A stretch of 64,000 nt of DNA from Candidatus Uhrbacteria bacterium (GTDB lineage: Bacteria; Patescibacteriota; Patescibacteriia; UBA9934), in assembly GCA_018664485.1 (NCBI GenBank), contig JABJOE010000005.1, positions 15,581 through 79,580 of the forward strand, in the 5' to 3' direction. The stretch's first letter is position 1. The number at the start of each line of letters is the position of its first letter. Shown here piece after piece: positions 7,410 to 61,291 of the stretch. The notes under the pieces are model-generated. The model saw nothing but the letters and a program-made list of their open reading frames with translations, did no database searches and had not been told where the DNA came from. The translations under genes and the position numbers were made by a program.

Positions 7410-7670
7410 TCAGGCTCCCAGCTCATCGAGACATTCATCAACGAGGCTCTTGATATCTTTGTCGACATCAGCGAGCTGGCTGAATGGGGCAAGCGCCTTG
7501 CGAACATCTGCCAGTGAGGTGAAGCGGAGGGTCACGAGCGGCCATTTTACCACCACTCCGTGCGTTCCTCTTCCGCCGTCTGTGACACTGACTCGTGCCT
7601 CTATCCGAACATTGGTGGCTACGTATACCCATCCAGTCAATTCTGCATGGGAGGGTTCTTGGTGGGCCAT
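7410..7670 (-). CDS. hypothetical protein (GC-rich island)
   Basis: Track ORF 7410..7739 trimmed to Met (MAHQEP) downstream of minus-strand promoter 7711-7740. Confidence 0.4.
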   Translation of the reverse strand: MAHQEPSHAELTGWVYVATNVRIEARVSVTDGGRGTHGVVVKWPLVTLRFTSLADVRKALAPFSQLADVDKDIKSLVDECLDELGA

Positions 7671-8419: not shown

Positions 8420-8965
8420 CTACCAGCCACCGCTGCCAGCACCACCTCGGTACGTACCGCTACCCGCGGTACTGCGTTCCGCGACGTCGCAGCTCAACGA
8501 GTAGTTGTCGTAGGTGTAGCCCTCGGGGTCGACTTCTTCTTCCAGGCGGACGCGAATCGTCGCGTCCAGCCTGTCGCCGCTATAGCCGCGGCCAGTACAC
8601 CAGGTTTCGTCTTCATCGTCTGGGTCGCCAGACTCGGGGTACTCATCGAACCAGAGCGCACCGTGCACGGACTCGCTGAAGGTCACGCCATCTGGGACGC
8701 AGATGCCCGCGAACGCGTTGCCGTTGGGCAGGTTCGTGGGGTCATCCGAGTCCTCAAGCCAGTCGAAGAAGATCTCTTCGCCGAGGTTCGTGACGTTCAA
8801 CGTAGAGCTGGTTCCATGGAACAGTACAGGGTCGATGTCCACGACCAAGCGGAGGTGGTACTGACCTTCGCATTGGCGAGGGCTCTTTTCGGTACAATCC
8901 GACATGGTGGTGAGGAGGGCGAAAGAAAGGACAGAGGCGGTACCGTTCATCAGTTTTATCTCCAC
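8420..8965 (-). CDS. secreted hypothetical protein (signal peptide, acidic, Gly/Ser-rich C-terminus; GC-rich island)
   Basis: N-terminal signal-like SVLSFALLTTMSDC; adjacent to 7875..8417 in same orientation. Confidence 0.5.
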   Translation of the reverse strand: MEIKLMNGTASVLSFALLTTMSDCTEKSPRQCEGQYHLRLVVDIDPVLFHGTSSTLNVTNLGEEIFFDWLEDSDDPTNLPNGNAFAGICVPDGVTFSESVHGALWFDEYPESGDPDDEDETWCTGRGYSGDRLDATIRVRLEEEVDPEGYTYDNYSLSCDVAERSTAGSGTYRGGAGSGGW

Positions 8966-19352: not shown

Positions 19353-19381
19353 TTGACAAAAGGGTGTTTTTGTGGTAGTAT
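19353..19381 (+). promoter_or_regulatory. promoter TTGACAAAAG-N13-TAGTAT
   Basis: TTGACA 19353-19358, 17-nt spacer, TAGTAT 19376-19381; preceded by hairpin GACCTCC-GGAA-GGGGGTC + TTTT (19329-19349) that may terminate hup. Confidence 0.5.
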
Positions 19382-19428
19382 TTTCCGTCCGATCACTAGC
19401 GTCTTTGCTATATCGACAAAGGAGGCTC

Positions 19429-19881
19429 ATGCCTACTGACGACCTGAAGCCCGGTGGCTGTGACCCAGCCTCGCCTGAGATGCAGGCGGACACGGGGCCC
19501 GTTGTGCCCGTGAAGCTCACGGAGGATGGAGAGCTATCTCCCGTTATCTTCACCAACCACAGTCCTCGTGTGAAGTGCACTGGAGTAGAGCCTGACGGAG
19601 ACTGCGAGGTCATTGACGGCGAAGCCGCCAAGGATCACGAAGTCTGGGATCTGGTTGCTGATGGGACCTGGAGCCCGAATCCTGTCGACCCAAATATCTG
19701 GGATTCGGATGCTACCGACACACCCGGAGGCGAGCCTGCAGTTGAGCAGCTTCGCCGACATGTCGGTACTGAATTTCACCAGATCCCGGAAGTTCCCGCA
19801 GCACCGACGCTCTACGCAGTTACAGACATCGATCACAACGATCCAGACGACCTCATTCAAGAGACTCTTGATCGGCGCTGA
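19429..19881 (+). CDS. acidic hypothetical protein (GC-rich island; strong AAGGAGG RBS)
   Basis: Track ORF 19372 trimmed to Met 19429 preceded by AAAGGAGG; Asp/Pro-rich, no known domain. Confidence 0.5.
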   Translation: MPTDDLKPGGCDPASPEMQADTGPVVPVKLTEDGELSPVIFTNHSPRVKCTGVEPDGDCEVIDGEAAKDHEVWDLVADGTWSPNPVDPNIWDSDATDTPGGEPAVEQLRRHVGTEFHQIPEVPAAPTLYAVTDIDHNDPDDLIQETLDRR

Positions 19882-39180: not shown

Positions 39181-39924
39181 TCACTCGGTCGGTGTAAGCT
39201 CATCGCGGATCGCCGCGATGCGCGCGTCCATCGAAGCGAGGGTGCTGCCGATGACGGTGTCGCGGTGGGTGCTCAAAGCCTGTTGAGCCGCAGCGGTCAT
39301 GAGGGCCTTCTCCAACTCGTGCCAGGGATCTTTGTGGCTGCTCACCGTGTAGATGGCCAGTGGGCCCGACGAGCTCGGTACATCTCCCGAAATTCGGATG
39401 TCCAGGCCCATGTCGCGACTCGAGAGCTCGCGGATCATGTCAATCGCGATTCGACAGGGGCAAGCGGCATTGGGCTCTGGGATGGAGATGTCGGTACCGG
39501 AGGTCGCCATGCGGAGCACATGCTTCGCCAGGAGAACAATCATTGCCTCCTCGACGGATTCCCAGTGGATCATGGCGCCGAGCATGCCCTCGAGGTCGGT
39601 GAGGGGGGCATGGAGATCACGACGGACCGCTTGAAAGAGGCGCTCGGCCGTACGATCATCGGGACCCGACCTCTCGGTGCTCTCAAAGGTCTGGAATTGT
39701 AGGGTGTATGTTCCGGGTGTCAGGTCCTCCAGGTCGTTGATACTTCCCACAAGGGTTTCACGCCACATGTCACCGAGTCTGCCGGTGGGGTTGGGGCTCA
39801 TGGTGAGGGACGGGTCACCCTCGCCGATCTCGACGGCAAGCGTCATGACGGGCTCTTCGGGGTTGGTGAATCCGATATCTACAGTGAGTGGTCCGGGGGT
39901 AAGGGCAGCAAGAATGTGCTTCAC
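39181..39924 (-). CDS. hypothetical protein, paralog of 38361..38984 (GC-rich island)
   Basis: 247-aa ORF; promoter TTGACAAAAA ~45 nt upstream. Confidence 0.5.
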   Translation of the reverse strand: MKHILAALTPGPLTVDIGFTNPEEPVMTLAVEIGEGDPSLTMSPNPTGRLGDMWRETLVGSINDLEDLTPGTYTLQFQTFESTERSGPDDRTAERLFQAVRRDLHAPLTDLEGMLGAMIHWESVEEAMIVLLAKHVLRMATSGTDISIPEPNAACPCRIAIDMIRELSSRDMGLDIRISGDVPSSSGPLAIYTVSSHKDPWHELEKALMTAAAQQALSTHRDTVIGSTLASMDARIAAIRDELTPTE

Positions 39925-39968: not shown

Positions 39969-39997
39969 ATCCTATAGTAAAATAAGGTTTTTGTCAA
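39969..39997 (-). promoter_or_regulatory. promoter TTGACAAAAA-N13-TAGGAT (minus strand)
   Basis: complement of 39992-39997 = TTGACA; 17-nt spacer; TAGGAT = complement of 39969-39974. Confidence 0.5.
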
Positions 39998-45338: not shown

Positions 45339-45719
45339 CTAAGTCTTTGAGGCTGAAATTCGTTTGATATGTATATTTATACCAGCAGCCAAGCCCTCAT
45401 ACCGTGATGTTAATTGGGCGTAGTGGGAAGTATCTAGAAAATTAAGATCTTTTGCAAGCTCTAATTGTGATAATAGCTCTTGTATCGAGCCTCGAGAGAA
45501 GATGAAGAAGCGGATTCGTTCTTTTGTTGATTGGCGTCCCATACCTTCTGCAATGTTGGACCCTACCGATACTGATGCACGACGCATTTGAGATATCAAG
45601 CCAAAACGTTCAACTTGTGGAAAATCGGATGTTACTTGATATGTCTTGATGCACAGCTTGTGCGCTTCTTGCCAAGTGCGTAAATCGCGGAATGAACGGA
45701 TTGTCATGTTATCTGACAC
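45339..45719 (-). CDS. four-helix-bundle protein (TIGR02436; 23S rRNA intervening-sequence protein family)
   Basis: FRDLRTWQEAHKL...FP..ERFGLISQMRRASVSVGSNIAEG...ELLSQL signature. Confidence 0.8.
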   Translation of the reverse strand: MSDNMTIRSFRDLRTWQEAHKLCIKTYQVTSDFPQVERFGLISQMRRASVSVGSNIAEGMGRQSTKERIRFFIFSRGSIQELLSQLELAKDLNFLDTSHYAQLTSRYEGLAAGINIHIKRISASKT

Positions 45720-47307: not shown

Positions 47308-48444
47308 ATGAGGAAACGTACGCAAGCATTCGTCAGAAGCACCCAGGCATTGATCGGATCCGTTATAGGGGTCGGAATTTTTGGTATTCCTTATGTTTTT
47401 GCTCAAGCCGGGGTAGGGATCGGTTTGATTTACTTGATTGTGCTAGGTGGTGTGAACTTGCTGATGCTCCTTGCATACGTAGATATTGTAGTAAACACAA
47501 ACGGTCATCATCGATTAGTCGGAAATGTAAAGGAATATCTGGGAGATCATTGGGGGTGGTTGATGACGATAGCGCTCTTTTTCAGCTCATGGGGAGCGAT
47601 GGTTGCGTACATTATCTTGGGTGGGGAGTTCCTTCATTCGATTATCTATCCATTAACTGGAGGTACAGTTTTCCAGTTTCAAATTTTGTTTGCTGTAGTT
47701 TTTGGCTTTTTGTTGATCGGTGGCTTGAGTATGATTTCCCGCTTGGAAGTCGTATTTGTGTTCGCACTGCTCATCATGTTGGTACTCATTATGGTAGGCG
47801 CTTTGCCGCATGCTGATGTTTCCAATTTGTTGGAGTGGAATACAGAGAGTGCATTCTTGCCGTTTGGAATTGTTCTGTTCGCGTTTGGAGGGTTGGCAGT
47901 GCTACCTGAAATGAAAGACATACTTGGAAAGAATAAAAGTTTACTTAGACCATCTGTTGTTCTTGGGTTTGCGACGATCGCTCTTATGTATGCACTCTTT
48001 GCAACGATAGTAGTGTCTGTTACAGGTGCCGCTACAACACAGGAGGCAATTCTAGGTTTGGGAGAGGTGATTGGTGATTGGGCTGTCACACTTGGTTCAT
48101 TAATTGGGTTTGTAGCTGTAGGAACAAGCTTCTTGATTTTGGGTGTTCAGATCATGAATAGTTTTATGTATGACTATAAACGTCGATACATGCTGTCATG
48201 GGCTTTTGCCGGTGGTGTGCCGGTCGTCGTGTTCTTGCTGGGTGCACGGGACTTTATTGATGTTATCGGATTTACCGGTGGAGTGCTCGCGTCACTCGTT
48301 GGGCTGATTACGATCCGAATGTATTTAAAAGCGAAAGTTCATGCATGCACCCCAAAACGTTGTTTGGCTATTCCTAGCTGGGCAATGTATTTGGCGAGTT
48401 TGATTTTGTTTGCCGGGATGATCGCTACGATCGTCGGGCTTTAG
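47308..48444 (+). CDS. amino acid transporter (Trp/Tyr permease / AAAP-like), 11 TM
   Basis: GSVIGVGIFGIPYVFAQAG N-terminal motif of aromatic amino acid permease family; start at ATG 47308. Confidence 0.65.
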   Translation: MRKRTQAFVRSTQALIGSVIGVGIFGIPYVFAQAGVGIGLIYLIVLGGVNLLMLLAYVDIVVNTNGHHRLVGNVKEYLGDHWGWLMTIALFFSSWGAMVAYIILGGEFLHSIIYPLTGGTVFQFQILFAVVFGFLLIGGLSMISRLEVVFVFALLIMLVLIMVGALPHADVSNLLEWNTESAFLPFGIVLFAFGGLAVLPEMKDILGKNKSLLRPSVVLGFATIALMYALFATIVVSVTGAATTQEAILGLGEVIGDWAVTLGSLIGFVAVGTSFLILGVQIMNSFMYDYKRRYMLSWAFAGGVPVVVFLLGARDFIDVIGFTGGVLASLVGLITIRMYLKAKVHACTPKRCLAIPSWAMYLASLILFAGMIATIVGL

Positions 48445-48534
48445 AGGATGATTTTAATGGCTGAATATAAATATACTACGCTTACTATTTTGGCCTGAAA
48501 TAAGGCTTTTTTTGTTTATTCTAGTCACTTGCTA

Positions 48535-48563
48535 TTGACAAAAGTGCTAATATAGGCTATAGT
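48535..48563 (+). promoter_or_regulatory. strong promoter TTGACAAAAG-N13-TATAGT driving a GC-rich non-coding unit
   Basis: TTGACA 48535-48540, 17-nt spacer, TATAGT 48558-48563. Confidence 0.6.
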
Positions 48564-48569
48564 CTTTTT

Positions 48570-49143
48570 ATCAGAATCAGAAAAGAGACATAAACTTCTA
48601 GGACACTGGTTGCGAATCAATACATGGTTCTCGAGCATCGTTCTAGAAGAAGGAGTCTGGCAACATATAAGGTTTGCCACCTATACACCCCAACTGTGGC
48701 TGTGCCAGATGGAGCACACGCTAAACCTGCTGACCTGTTTAAGCTGTCCGCTGTACGACCCCGAGGTCGTCGACTGTAAGATACGATCCCTTCGGGATTC
48801 GTAAGTAGGATGCGCCCCTTGGGAGCGCAAAAGCAGAGTAAGCTCGCTAGTCAATATTGATAAGTATCCGGGTGAGCGGAGTTATCATGGACTGGTAGAT
48901 GCACCCTGAAGAAGGGTTTCTCACCACACGCGGGCCACTTGCCCAATCTGTTGACGAATACGACGAAAATTAGCCTTGGCGATGGCTCTGTTCTTAAGTG
49001 AGCGGGGTCATCGCCCCACGTCTCCTTGTGGGGACGTTCACGTAGTATGCGGCGCCTTCTCATTTGGGGGCGTCGCGTTTATTTTTGTACGGTAATATGT
49101 AGCTACGATCATCGGGCTTTAAAAATCGCGAGTAAACAAAAAA
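48570..49143 (+). ncRNA. candidate ~580-nt structured non-coding RNA (class unidentified)
   Basis: GC-rich segment with multiple GC hairpins (e.g. GATCCC-TTC-GGGATT, CCCCAC-N8-GTGGGG), bounded by consensus promoter and bidirectional terminator; longest ORFs only 64/70 aa with implausible sequence despite high GC. Confidence 0.3.
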
Positions 49144-49166
49144 AAGTCATTTCTGACTTCTTTTTT
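49144..49166. terminator. bidirectional terminator AAGTCA-TTTC-TGACTT flanked by A8 and T6
   Basis: between + ncRNA candidate and convergent folD (-). Confidence 0.55.
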
Positions 49167-49174
49167 ATATAAAA

Positions 49175-50011
49175 CTATATTTTGTTTTTCTGCATTCCGT
49201 ATGCCCGCACAACGTTCATGAGTAGGTACGCCACTGTAAGCGGCCCAACTCCTCCGGGAACAGGTGTGACAAACGCTGCTTTCTCGCGCGCAGGTCGATC
49301 GACGTCACCAACAGTTTTATCACCAACTTTATTTGTTCCAACGTCAATTATGATTGCACCGTCTTTGATCATGTCTTTCTTTATAAACCCAGCACGACCA
49401 ACAGCGATGACTATGATATCAGACACGCGTGTCTTTGCTGCAAGTGCGCCAGACTCAGGCGAGAAAAACTGTGCGTCAATATCTTGTTCTGCAAGTAATG
49501 CCATTAGCGGTTCGACAAACACTTCGTTGTTTGCAATGACAGTTGCCGTCTTCTGCTTAAGCGGCTGGTTACTTGCTTGAATCAATCGCATGATACTGAG
49601 AGCCACAGGAGGGAAGAGTGACGGTTCACCTTGCGAACGAAGCTCACGGTTGTGTGGGTGGAAGCCGTCTATATCTTTTGTAGGGTCAATTGCTGCGATC
49701 ACTGCATCTTCATCTTGCGTTGGAAGCGGAAGCTGTACAAGGATTCCGTGTATGTCATCTCGCACGTTGAGCGCTTCCACAATCGCGACAAGCTCCTTAG
49801 TACTCGTACCAGCAGGAGGCGTAATTTTTTCAAAGTAAATCCCAGCTTCTTTTGAAGCTTCTTCTTTGAGCCGAACATATAGGTGCGACGCTGCATCATC
49901 TCCTACCAAAATAGCTGCCATCCCAGGCGGGTGGTCGAGTTTTGCTATTCGCTTTTTCGCCTTCTCACGAATAGACGCTGCAAGTTGTTTTCCTTTGAGC
50001 AATTCAGCCAT
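49175..50011 (-). CDS. folD: bifunctional methylenetetrahydrofolate dehydrogenase/cyclohydrolase FolD
   Basis: ILVGDDAASHLYVRLK, GILVQLPLP, GRAGFIKKDMIKDGAIIIDVG. Confidence 0.95.
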   Translation of the reverse strand: MAELLKGKQLAASIREKAKKRIAKLDHPPGMAAILVGDDAASHLYVRLKEEASKEAGIYFEKITPPAGTSTKELVAIVEALNVRDDIHGILVQLPLPTQDEDAVIAAIDPTKDIDGFHPHNRELRSQGEPSLFPPVALSIMRLIQASNQPLKQKTATVIANNEVFVEPLMALLAEQDIDAQFFSPESGALAAKTRVSDIIVIAVGRAGFIKKDMIKDGAIIIDVGTNKVGDKTVGDVDRPAREKAAFVTPVPGGVGPLTVAYLLMNVVRAYGMQKNKI

Positions 50012-55678: not shown

Positions 55679-55706
55679 GAATCCCGAACTAGGTTCGGGA
55701 TTCTTT
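55679..55706. terminator. terminator: perfect 11-bp hairpin GAATCCCGAAC-TAG-GTTCGGGATTC + TTTC
   Basis: between hpf copy 2 (+) and convergent small gene 55728..55874 (-). Confidence 0.65.
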
Positions 55707-55727
55707 CGTGCAAGACGAGGAGTTGTC

Positions 55728-55874
55728 TTACTCGTAGGTGTTTGCGGCCATTGCCTCGGTGATCACTGTCGCGACCACGTCGGCGCTCCCCAGGTTGTGA
55801 GTGTTGGCCTTCGCCATCAGAATGGCGATGACTACAATCAGGGCCACGATGACGTGGTGTGGGCGGATTTCCAT
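55728..55874 (-). CDS. small (48 aa) single-TM protein
   Basis: minus-strand ATG 55874 preceded by GGAGGT RBS and (CAA)10 leader; MEIRPHHVIVALIVVIAILMAKANTHNLGSADVVATVITEAMAANTYE; not in ORF track (<60 aa). Confidence 0.45.
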   Translation of the reverse strand: MEIRPHHVIVALIVVIAILMAKANTHNLGSADVVATVITEAMAANTYE

Positions 55875-55888
55875 TTTCCGTTACCTCC

Positions 55889-55922
<34 letters not shown>

Positions 55923-55926
55923 GGGG

Positions 55927-56103
55927 TCAGTCGATGTAGATGATCTCGCACGTGTCAGGTGGGGTCACCTTGCAGGTGGCTTCCGACCCTTTCTCGGCGA
56001 TGATCACAAGATTGCTTACTTCTCGCTCAGCAACATATCCGTGTACGAACATGCGACCGAAGAATGCGGCGAGCACCATTGCTGCAACCGTAAGGTGGCG
56101 CAT
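55927..56103 (-). CDS. small (58 aa) signal/TM peptide (MRHLTVAAMVLAAFFG...)
   Basis: GGAG RBS 5 nt upstream of ATG 56103; R1 repeat 35 nt upstream. Confidence 0.45.
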   Translation of the reverse strand: MRHLTVAAMVLAAFFGRMFVHGYVAEREVSNLVIIAEKGSEATCKVTPPDTCEIIYID

Positions 56104-56137
56104 TAAGTCTCCGGGGAATCGATGCATGTTGCATCTA

Positions 56138-56185
56138 GGTTCACGAAATGCAGGAACGTGTCGTGCACTTTGTGAACCCTTGGAG
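56138..56185. repeat. R1 repeat copy a (48 nt, internal inverted repeat GGTTCAC...GTGAACC)
   Basis: identical to 56958-57005. Confidence 0.85.
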
Positions 56186-56214
56186 GCTATCGGCGGTATA
56201 TCTTCAAATCTTTT

Positions 56215-56256
56215 GCCTCAGAGATCACGACGTAGTCATGGTCTCAATTGGCGGCC
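56215..56256. repeat. R2 repeat copy a (42 nt hairpin element GCCTCAGAGATCACGAC-GTAG-TCATGGTCTC-AATTGGCGGCC)
   Basis: four copies with compensatory substitutions in the stem. Confidence 0.8.
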
Positions 56257-56298
56257 ACAGAAAGATTCCTGGGCCTAGGGGAGATGACGGTTGCCATC

Positions 56299-56505
56299 TC
56301 AGAAGATGAAGTAGTGCCGGTTGGTGATGTCTTCACCGTTTTCTGCGATGTCGGGGGTGGGCAGGGCCTCGATCGAGTCGAGTGCCTCGACCAGAGCAGG
56401 GCTCAAGTCGGGGGACATCACAGCCTTGAGGGCAGCGTTGTCGTCGGTGGTGGTTGAGGTTCCGGTGCTCAGAGCGAGCAGAACGGCAAGGATGGTGTTG
56501 GACAT
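56299..56505 (-). CDS. small (68 aa) secreted acidic peptide (MSNTILAVLLALSTG...)
   Basis: signal-peptide-like N-terminus; track ORF trimmed to internal Met. Confidence 0.4.
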   Translation of the reverse strand: MSNTILAVLLALSTGTSTTTDDNAALKAVMSPDLSPALVEALDSIEALPTPDIAENGEDITNRHYFIF

Positions 56506-56584
56506 ATTGTCCTCCGTTGTGGGGTGGGTGGGTGTCACCAAGCATGTAATGACACTTACTCAACTCACAACTTTTATTTGCATC

Positions 56585-56626
56585 GCCTTGGAGGTCACCA
56601 GCTAGTGATGATCTCAGTTGGCGGCC
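56585..56626. repeat. R2 repeat copy b (diverged)
   Basis: GCCTTGGAGGTCACCAG-CTAG-TGATGATCTC-AGTTGGCGGCC. Confidence 0.7.
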
Positions 56627-56681
56627 TAGAGAGATGATTCTAGGACCACGGTTGAAGAGTGAAGGAAGGTTGGTTGGTAGT

Positions 56682-56927
56682 TCAGGCAGGTGTTCCTTGG
56701 TACATCGTCCCGAAGGCCAGGAGGAGCAAGAACATCTTGGCCAGAACCATCATGCTGCCGCCCCAGATTGCGGTCGCTCCACGATCGTAGTGGGGCATAC
56801 GACGCATCCGAATCATCAGGATGGCGGCGATGGTCAGCGATGCGGCGAAGCCGACGCTGGAAGTAGTGATGCCTGCATCGGTGCAGAGCATGGCGAGAAA
56901 TTCAGCTTTGAGTTGGGTCGGGGTCAT
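56682..56927 (-). CDS. small (81 aa) two-TM membrane protein (MTPTQLKAEFLAML...)
   Basis: GGAG RBS 6 nt upstream of ATG 56927; R1 copy b 30 nt upstream. Confidence 0.45.
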   Translation of the reverse strand: MTPTQLKAEFLAMLCTDAGITTSSVGFAASLTIAAILMIRMRRMPHYDRGATAIWGGSMMVLAKMFLLLLAFGTMYQGTPA

Positions 56928-56957
56928 GGTGGCTCCAGTGTGATGCATATGCATCGA

Positions 56958-57005
56958 GGGTTCACGAAATGCAGGAACGTGTCGTGCACTTTGTGAACCC
57001 TTGGA
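56958..57005. repeat. R1 repeat copy b
   Basis: 48/48 identical to copy a. Confidence 0.85.
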
Positions 57006-57020
57006 GCTCGTATTACGTAT

Positions 57021-57064
57021 TGCCTCAGAGATCACCACAAGCATGTGATGGTCTCAATTGGCTG
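57021..57064. repeat. R2 repeat copy c
   Basis: GCCTCAGAGATCACCAC-AAGCA-TGTGATGGTCTC-AATTGGCTGG; G-C to C-G covariation at stem position 9. Confidence 0.75.
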
Positions 57065-57101
57065 GTAGTTGGACAAGAAATGTCCGCGTACCAAGTGCTG
57101 T

Positions 57102-57281
57102 TTAGCCTGTGATCATCATGAGGAAGAACAGACCGCCGAGCATCGTGCCCCCGATCAGGAAAAGTACCGTGATTAGTGCTTTCGCTAAATCTTCGTCCTT
57201 TCGTGTTTTTTCTTCTTGTGATCTGATTCTGATCTCGTTGGCTCGTTTCTGCTCATAACTTGGCTGGCGTCGTTTTCTCAT
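57102..57281 (-). CDS. small (59 aa) tail-anchored membrane protein (basic N-terminus, C-terminal TM)
   Basis: MRKRRQPSYEQKRANEIRIRSQEEKTRKDEDLAKALITVLFLIGGTMLGGLFFLMMITG; not in ORF track (<60 aa). Confidence 0.4.
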   Translation of the reverse strand: MRKRRQPSYEQKRANEIRIRSQEEKTRKDEDLAKALITVLFLIGGTMLGGLFFLMMITG

Positions 57282-57327
57282 TGCTTCTACCTATTCGGGT
57301 TACTGCCCGATATGTGGAGGCGTATTT

Positions 57328-57369
57328 GCCTCAGAGATCACGACATAGTCATGGCCTCAATTGGCAGCC
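57328..57369. repeat. R2 repeat copy d
   Basis: GCCTCAGAGATCACGAC-ATAG-TCATGGCCTC-AATTGGCAGCC. Confidence 0.75.
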
Positions 57370-57424
57370 GCGGAACAGTGAAGTTCCGCGGCAGTCAGCT
57401 ACGTAGTAACGCAGGTGATGGGCC

Positions 57425-57628
57425 TCAGAGGGAGGCGAGGACATCAGGATTGATGTCGTTGGTCCGGGGCGTGATGCCCATGACCGGGATGGTCGCGCCG
57501 CCGTTGGGCTGGAGCGAGTCCATGGTGTCGCTGAGCTTCACCATGGACTCGTGCATTTCGTAGCACGGAATGGCGAACCCGCCGATGGTGAGTGCGAAAG
57601 CGAGGCCGAGGTGAATGATTCGAGTCAT
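57425..57628 (-). CDS. small (67 aa) secreted/lipoprotein-like peptide (MTRIIHLGLAFALTIGGFAIPC...)
   Basis: GGAGA RBS 6 nt upstream of ATG 57628; track ORF trimmed. Confidence 0.45.
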   Translation of the reverse strand: MTRIIHLGLAFALTIGGFAIPCYEMHESMVKLSDTMDSLQPNGGATIPVMGITPRTNDINPDVLASL

Positions 57629-57677
57629 GATGGATCTCCGAGTTGTAGTGCACTGAGTTGTGCTTGATCCTGACCTA

Positions 57678-57706
57678 ATAGTAGCACGTTTTAGCACTTT
57701 TGTCAA
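57678..57706 (-). promoter_or_regulatory. promoter TTGACAAAAG-N13-TACTAT (minus strand) heading the small-peptide array
   Basis: complement of 57701-57706 = TTGACA; 17-nt spacer; TACTAT = complement of 57678-57683. Confidence 0.5.
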
Positions 57707-57968
57707 GTTACTCTGGACAGAAAAGAGAGAGAAAACCTTATAAAACAAGCATAAAACAGTCTTTTTGTTTTGTATCTTTGAACTAAAATTCAATAACTTT
57801 TTAGCCTAATAAAGACAAAGTTGTACGCCTTGTCATTTTCGACATTTTCAGGCACAATAGCGACGTTATACCCAACGGAATGGCCTTTAACATGTACTTT
57901 CTAAAAGTGCCTTAAGGTCTACGGGATAAAAACTCATATACAGATTTTGGATAACTCTATTTAAAGTT

Positions 57969-61172: not shown

Positions 61173-61291
61173 AGGGGATGAAGGGTGTCGAACCCCCGAC
61201 CTACCGTTAGCGTTTGCGTGTTGGCGCAAACGAGGCCTACCAGGACCGTAGGTCCGGGCCACGGTCGCTCTCCCAACTGAGCTACATCCCC
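61173..61291 (-). tRNA. oversized (119 nt) tRNA-like gene: canonical acceptor (GGGGATG/CATCCCC), D arm and T arm but ~68-nt anticodon/variable region with extra 8-bp hairpin (possible intron-containing or atypical tRNA)
   Basis: minus strand GGGGATG-TA-GCTC-AGTTGGGA-GAGC-G-ACCGT...ACGGT-AGGTC-GGGGG-TTCGACA-CCCTT-CATCCCC-T; no U33-containing 7-nt anticodon loop can be placed without removing ~45 nt; no CCA encoded. Confidence 0.45.

Follow-up and report, generated by a model that had tools for sequence, protein, structure and literature searches.

An inserted 657-bp non-coding segment at the permease-folD junction of a Candidatus Uhrbacteria lineage, a candidate orphan RNA gene

Why should a bacterium of the CPR (Patescibacteria) keep a 0.73-kb stretch of non-coding DNA, furnished with a strong promoter and a terminator of its own, between two convergent genes? 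Such a spacer is unusual in these organisms because their genomes, of about 1 Mb, are densely coding, and to our knowledge very few ncRNAs have been described in the radiation apart from the universal ones. The stretch lies in a 64,000-nt segment (hereafter the window) of a metagenome-assembled genome of Candidatus Uhrbacteria, where the genes for an amino-acid permease (NCBI MBT4856906.1) and FolD (MBT4856907.1) face each other across 730 nt. Both belong to one 986-kb contig, and their consecutive accession numbers imply that NCBI annotates no protein between them; the neighbours of the locus are DnaB, permease, FolD and GlyA. An initial annotation, made from the letters of the window, had described here a GC-rich unit of ~580 nt, full of GC hairpins and bounded by a promoter and a terminator, as a candidate structured ncRNA. 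The features that emerged from our analysis are as follows, in window coordinates.

47308-48444, plus strand: amino-acid permease gene, the 5' flank of the insert
48424-48443, plus strand: direct repeat copy 1, GCTACGATCGTCGGGCTTTA, comprising the last permease codons (the permease stop ends at 48444)
48445-49101, plus strand: inserted segment of 657 bp between the repeat copies, missing from every relative examined
48492-48514, plus strand: weak terminator-like hairpin (5-bp stem, 3 GC pairs) with a T run (T7)
48535-48563, plus strand: sigma-70-type promoter, TTGACA-17 nt-TATAGT, 11/12 consensus positions
48570-49088, plus strand: predicted non-coding transcript of ~520 nt, both ends placed from the promoter and the terminator
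48595-48649, plus strand: 5' stem-loop of 10+3+6 bp, pairing probability ~1.0
48978-49037, plus strand: two tandem 3' hairpins, 16 bp with 4 G-U pairs, then 8 bp
49047-49078, with T tract to 49088, plus strand: intrinsic terminator of the unit, 13 pairs, GC-rich, followed by TTATTTTTGT
49102-49121, plus strand: direct repeat copy 2, GCTACGATCATCGGGCTTTA followed by A, comprising orphan last codons of the permease and a TAA stop
49137-49166, minus strand: folD terminator, an A/T-flanked hairpin
49175-50011, minus strand: folD, convergent to the permease gene, with glyA behind it

The promoter named in the initial annotation withstood closer inspection. It matches the sigma-70 consensus at 11 of 12 positions on the plus strand and has the extended form TTGACAAAAG-N13-TAnnnT, where TTGACAAAAG is the extended -35 motif of this organism. 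The exact TTGACAAAAG motif occurs seven times in the window, each time with a -10-like TAnnnT hexamer 17 nt downstream. Sites scoring at least 11/12 number two in all 64 kb, which is about the shuffle expectation for the entire window; because there are only two, it is unlikely to be by chance that one of them lies within the 730-nt spacer, correctly oriented and at the appropriate end.

The opposite boundary had to be moved. The unit had been thought to end at a bidirectional A/T-flanked hairpin at 49144-49166, but this hairpin is more stable on the minus strand (-11.4 kcal/mol, z -3.5, with U8 behind it) than on the plus strand (-6.3 kcal/mol, z -2.0) and is the terminator of folD. On the plus strand the unit stops at a much stronger intrinsic terminator at 49047-49088 (-24.6 kcal/mol, z -5.5), which had been overlooked, and the predicted RNA is therefore ~520 nt long and not ~580 nt; the bracketing of the unit by a promoter and a terminator stood. 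The hairpin at 48492-48514, just 3' of the permease stop codon and weak when taken alone (-7 kcal/mol, z -1.4), now acts as the permease terminator.

With its promoter and its intrinsic terminator on one strand, the unit is arranged like a generic stand-alone ncRNA gene, which should also lack coding potential; the coding potential of the segment was examined by several routes. No ORF exceeds 70 aa (82 codons from stop to stop) between the end of the permease gene at 48444 and that of folD at 49175, as annotated initially. The accompanying argument, that long ORFs should be expected here by chance and are depleted, was wrong: in dinucleotide-shuffled spacers the longest open run measures 80.5±18.8 codons, and the real spacer has 82. 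The GC-richness on which it leaned is mild as well, with 50.7% GC in the unit and a window mean of 45.5%, yet the unit is well above ordinary intergenic DNA (34-37%).

Statistics of the segment nonetheless agree with the original view that it is non-coding. GC content per codon position is flat in every frame (0.48-0.54), whereas host genes show 0.6/0.38/0.4 and the genes of the GC-rich islands in the window reach a GC3 of 0.72-0.84. Codon log-odds are negative in six of six frames, and local period-3 power ranges from 0.24 to 1.18 across the unit (0.74 in shuffled sequence), compared with 1.3-5.9 in most windows of real genes of both composition types. The absence of periodicity even locally also argues against a recently decayed gene. 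The ten longest six-frame fragments, all of at least 40 aa, had no match in Pfam, and a joined query of all twelve six-frame fragments of at least 30 aa matched none of 5.8 billion proteins at E<=10, in a word search that once missed its query's own cluster representative and whose negatives are thus not absolute. By all available tests, the insert is non-coding. A small-protein gene or type I toxin was rejected, as no ORF has a ribosome-binding site, codon periodicity or homologues; by inspection, the sole short ORF of hydrophobic character (48976-49095) lacks a Shine-Dalgarno sequence and reaches its stop codon only past the U-tract of the terminator.

One coding reading required separate treatment. 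If TGA were read as sense, or if the gene carried two nonsense mutations, a minus-strand frame of 173 codons (49078-48560), downstream of folD, would cover the whole unit, a length attained in 1.15% of shuffles. Corrected for the three alternative codes tested, this figure becomes p ~0.03. The frame scores -0.33 log-odds per codon, as bad as an out-of-frame reading, with G at codon position 1 at 0.26 vs 0.38 in real genes; it has no period-3 signal, and neither of its halves has homologues. Its ATG lies in the plus-strand terminator hairpin, and TGA is a stop codon in this host, whose long ORFs are intact under table 11. We rejected this frame on its codon statistics, lack of periodicity and lack of homologues, and consider such a gene very improbable.

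How a non-coding segment came to lie here is clarified by the permease-folD junctions of related genomes (loci numbered with the prefix L), which compare as follows.

L081, closest by permease (85% identity): permease-folD spacer of 1 nt
L083, L084, L085 and L086 (FolD 61-64% identity): spacers of 24, 51, 28 and -4 nt
L067/L068 (82% protein identity): spacer of 220 nt
L007 (FolD 86%): spacer of 774 nt with a GC-rich 132-135-aa ORF
L069-L074 (FolD 79%): spacer of 566 nt with a GC-rich 132-135-aa ORF

The junction is empty or nearly so in five relatives, from an overlap to at most 51 nt, and three further related lineages carry either the 220-nt spacer or an unrelated 132-135-aa gene. Judged from these spacers, the tight permease-folD junction is the ancestral state. 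No lineage closer than ~85% identity is on record, and the protein clusters contain none at 90-99%. Since sister lineages carry unrelated cargo at this very position, the junction is a recurrent landing site. The cargo protein of 132-135 aa (L007 5055-5453, minus strand; L069 5240-5647, plus strand; 75% mutual identity) is hydrophobic in an N-terminal segment, falls into no Pfam family and is encoded by DNA whose GC content exceeds that of the genome by ~10 points; no direct repeats surround its ORF, and homology between this ORF and the insert was sought and dismissed. An apparent remnant of the terminator of this cargo is visible in the 220-nt spacer of L067.

The insert itself is framed by a direct repeat that, like the insertion as such, had escaped the initial annotation. 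Its two copies, with the consensus GCTACGATC[G/A]TCGGGCTTTA, lie 678 nt apart from start to start and agree at 19 of 20 positions (they differ at 1/20, or at 2/21 when the stop codon is counted). When the 1-kb region was dinucleotide-shuffled 300 times, the best repeats had a mean length of 11.8 nt and none was longer than 16 nt. Copy 1 is the end of the permease gene; copy 2 is in frame with its TAA, and 52 nt separate it from the folD stop codon. As a gap of at most 52 nt is usual for permease and folD in the relatives, we read copy 2 as the ancestral permease-folD junction. In the insertion, the final 20 nt of the permease gene were either duplicated or brought along as a separate copy. A degenerate third copy of the permease end within the insert proved not significant.

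All same-species contigs carry an identical insert, except that a single homopolymer outside the RNA varies in length, and none of them shows an empty-site allele. The 19/20 repeat (16 nt or less in shuffles), the empty junctions of relatives, the other cargo found there and the fixation of the insert in its species together establish that a 657-bp segment was inserted at an ancestrally tight convergent junction in one Candidatus Uhrbacteria lineage.

Att-like direct repeats at the 3' end of a target gene, combined with empty sites in relatives, are what an integrative element leaves. The insert could accordingly be a small non-autonomous mobile or integrative element, mobilised in trans, and its RNA would then be part of the biology of the element itself, for example as a recombination guide or regulator. 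The significant 20-nt repeat at a gene 3' end, with that gene end reconstituted, is the classic signature of site-specific integration, and it resembles the elements that integrate at gene 3' ends, including cis-mobilisable ones: the 3' end of the target ORF forms an imperfect 20-nt repeat, the gene is completed again on one side, an orphan copy stands on the other, and relatives have empty sites. Unlike such elements, the insert measures only 657 bp, has no integrase and was seen neither in a second copy nor in an excised form. No recombinase, transposase or integrase gene lies within or beside it (no ORF in the insert exceeds 70 aa), no terminal inverted repeats mark its ends, where two terminators contribute a generic T-run/A-run as the sole flanking inverted repeat, and neither the 64-kb window nor any of 27 related loci contains a second copy. 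The lack of an empty-site allele among same-species contigs also speaks against mobility, as do the insignificant alignments of the RNA with the repeat core (sense p 0.10-0.26, antisense p >0.97).

We consider an element of this kind unlikely. A MITE or insertion sequence was rejected on the missing terminal inverted repeats, the absence of another copy and a duplication of 20 nt where 2-15 bp would be expected, and an IS110 bridge-RNA-like element because alignments between repeat and RNA stay within the shuffle expectation and no IS110-type gene is present. Moreover, unlike the att site of an integrative element, the repeat could equally stem from illegitimate recombination: homology-facilitated recombination of this type with a related donor would give the same picture as site-specific integration.

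What the segment might encode was approached through its predicted RNA. The whole unit (523 nt) folds with z -4.7 to -5.0 on the plus strand, compared with about -0.8 (-0.76) on the minus strand. Among 48 control windows of the same length (mean z -0.83, sd 1.73, minimum -4.74) the unit, which scored -4.7 in this calibration, is extreme but not unique; the one control that equals it (z -4.74) does so because it contains the region of an intron-bearing tRNA gene at 61173-61291. The excess resides at the two ends. The 5' stem-loop at 48595-48649 reaches -23.9 kcal/mol (z -4.85), and the tandem hairpins at 48978-49037 reach -41.5 kcal/mol (z -7.0) and are strand-specific because of their G-U pairs; the terminator hairpin contributes as well. 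In contrast, the central 326 nt (48650-48975) fold like shuffled sequence (z -0.83), and the best central sub-domain (48722-48884), with z -3.0 on the plus strand, still scores -2.3 on the minus strand. A 150-nt sliding profile agrees in placing excess structure in the 5' hairpin and the 3' hairpins only.

Structure above background across the whole molecule, as in a conserved structured RNA, is thus not observed. What emerges is a predicted RNA whose ends are strongly structured and strand-specific and whose middle is ordinary, and not a globally folded large RNA. The description of the stretch as full of GC hairpins fits its ends (z -4.85 and -7.0) and not its centre at 48650-48975; by the same token, the candidate structured ncRNA keeps its strand-asymmetric fold and structured ends but is no large RNA structured throughout, given a centre at z -0.83. 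A GC-enriched non-coding sequence in a long spacer is the signature by which the OLE, ROOL, GOLLD, HEARO and raiA classes were discovered, and the predicted RNA of ~0.5 kb shares it, being non-coding, GC-enriched and placed in a long spacer. Those RNAs are structured throughout and widely conserved, whereas the predicted RNA is structured at its ends only.

Searches for relatives of the RNA returned nothing of substance. Rfam held no relevant family, either at the gathering score over the whole window or at E<=10 over 48400-49250 on both strands, in line with the earlier failure to recognise RNase P, tmRNA or SRP RNA by eye; the best permissive match, 31 nt of NsiR1, was partial and reached 23.6 bits (E 0.034), where the gathering score is 39. 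Bacterial RNase P RNA (RNaseP_bact_a/b) matched neither at the gathering score nor at E<=10. A tmRNA, permuted forms included, was rejected because ARAGORN found none in the window and no Rfam tmRNA model matched; OLE, ROOL, GOLLD, HEARO, raiA, group I/II introns, 6S and SRP were rejected for want of a covariance-model match at E<=10, and a tRNA scan gave nothing in the insert region. CsrB-like GGA enrichment was not found either (9 GGA counted by eye, ~9 expected).

Comparisons beyond known families led to the same result. A distant-mode blastn against phages and plasmids gave only chance matches of ~30 nt or less, nhmmer of the unit against all fetched loci found same-species copies only, and a covariance model built on the central domain with the best support (48724-48884) matched nothing in the window and 27 related loci. 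Exact probes of 18-38 nt, in five scans of viral contigs and one of a metagenome, yielded chance matches only; no same-species contig came up with the 18-base probe used on the metagenome, and since the source species may be missing from that collection, its negative is weak. Four loci raised by the probes (L075, L076, L080 and L082) were discarded as RNA homologues, their matches being chance ones inside coding regions. Literature on CPR ncRNA classes offered nothing applicable. The unit belongs to no described RNA family. Because it is a lineage-specific insertion, its relatives have no homologous spacer from which covariation could be read, and because the same-species copies are identical, they contain nothing on which to count it.

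Taking these results together, our preferred but tentative explanation, to which we give somewhat less than an even chance, is that the insert is a horizontally acquired, independently transcribed orphan ncRNA gene, whose product would be a stable RNA of ~520 nt acting in trans. Three observations argue for it: the 11/12 promoter with the organism-specific motif is paired with a strong terminator on the same strand; the fold has z -5.0 on the plus strand vs -0.76 on the minus strand, with helices rich in G-U pairs; and GC content, at 50.7%, is well above the 34-37% of ordinary intergenic DNA. Against it count the lack of any homologue in the searches, the unstructured centre (z -0.83) and the one control among 48 that equals the z of the whole unit. 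In such a gene, a host-type strong sigma-70 promoter would start the RNA near 48570. An A-rich leader would come first, followed by the stable 5' stem-loop, then by a middle of ~330 nt, GC-balanced and predicted to be not unusually structured, and finally by three strong hairpins, the last of them the presumed intrinsic terminator near 49088. The end hairpins may stabilise the transcript, and the open centre could be available for contacts in trans with proteins or nucleic acids.

Acquired stand-alone ncRNA units are, as a kind of thing, already known. Typical bacterial sRNAs measure 50-300 nt, and the morons of prophages are independent promoter-to-terminator units between resident genes. From general knowledge rather than homology, the insert resembles island-encoded sRNA or ncRNA genes and morons in standing alone with its own sigma-70 promoter and intrinsic terminator, and in lying between two conserved core genes in one lineage with an atypical composition. 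It differs from typical sRNAs in the ~520 nt of its predicted RNA, and from island sRNAs and morons in having no surrounding island or prophage.

Nearly as likely as an ncRNA gene is an inert remnant of foreign DNA, perhaps transcribed but without a function of its own. A larger integrated element may have left the insert behind as a scar or in miniature form, or homology-facilitated illegitimate recombination may have captured it as a fragment; its hairpins would then derive from terminators or UTR elements of genes since lost. Such an origin fits an orphan confined to one lineage, with no structure above chance in its central 326 nt and no integrase or other mobility gene in or adjoining it, at a site that is a recurrent insertion point with unrelated cargo in sister lineages; the window also holds several other atypical GC-rich islands with the same type of promoter. 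It fits less well with a near-perfect host-type promoter and a strong terminator that bracket the segment exactly and on one strand, and with the lack of coding periodicity even locally, which argues against a recently decayed gene. GC content, too, is still 51% against 34-37% in spacers, though the repeat copies have already diverged at one position in 20. In addition, streamlined CPR genomes are expected to purge junk DNA, and from a genome of ~1 Mb an inert segment would probably have been lost.

The unit is thus real but less remarkable than first described, and we regard it as a reasonable, unproven ncRNA candidate and not as a discovery. Should it prove to be transcribed and functional, this lineage would have gained an accessory RNA of its own by insertion, and the permease-folD junction would stand out as a place where accessory cargo lands repeatedly in Uhrbacteria; if inert, the unit would be no more than a scar of horizontal transfer.

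A bolder extension of the ncRNA gene, which we consider improbable, would make the unit the first-seen RNA-only accessory cassette of CPR: a mobile promoter-ncRNA-terminator module that lands at gene 3' ends and duplicates ~20 nt there. Its RNA would serve the host, for example in defence or regulation, or the mobility of the module itself. Given the GC-rich cassettes with TTGACAAAAG promoters that encode small proteins, the unit would be the non-coding counterpart of a broader cassette system.

The seven TTGACAAAAG-N13-TAnnnT sites lie at 661, 4379, 7739 (minus strand), 9114 (minus), 19353, 48535 and 57706 (minus), and a one-mismatch variant, TTGACAAAAA, at 39997 (minus). This extended promoter appears only in regions of atypical and mostly GC-rich composition, ahead of hypothetical ORFs without Pfam families, such as 844-1782, 7410-7670, 8420-8965, 19372-19881 and 39181-39924; two of these units have in common a 5'-UTR motif, GGAGATCC, directly before the ATG. 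This promoter may be the hallmark of a class of accessory cassettes and not of housekeeping genes.

The GC-rich island at 55700-57720 (minus strand) looks like an array of foreign gene cassettes. Sixteen bases of its promoter, TTGACAAAAGTGCTAA (57706-57691), are identical to the promoter of the insert. It comprises several small ORFs of secreted or membrane type, two of which have GC3 values of 0.72 and 0.84 (host ~0.4) and no Pfam match above threshold. An element of ~51 nt recurs between the ORFs at 56212, 56582, 57020 and 57325, with a weaker copy at 55751; a perfect 48-nt repeat occupies 56138-56185 and 56959-57006, and a (CAA)n run lies near 55890-55925. The island has no Rfam match.

Two further genes of the window deserve mention. 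Between dnaB and ybaB, at 45339-45719 (minus strand), lies a gene of the 23S_rRNA_IVP family (PF05635), a fold also used by the Avd proteins of DGRs; no reverse transcriptase was called among its immediate neighbours, and the gene is missing at this position in L067 and L069. The tRNA gene at 61173-61291 (minus strand) was missed by ARAGORN and by the gathering-mode Rfam scan and recovered by permissive cmscan (45.7 bits, E 5.6e-9). A 53-nt insertion, made up of the anticodon loop and an intron-like insert, separates its anticodon-stem strands, and a short insert of this kind is unusual in a bacterial tRNA.
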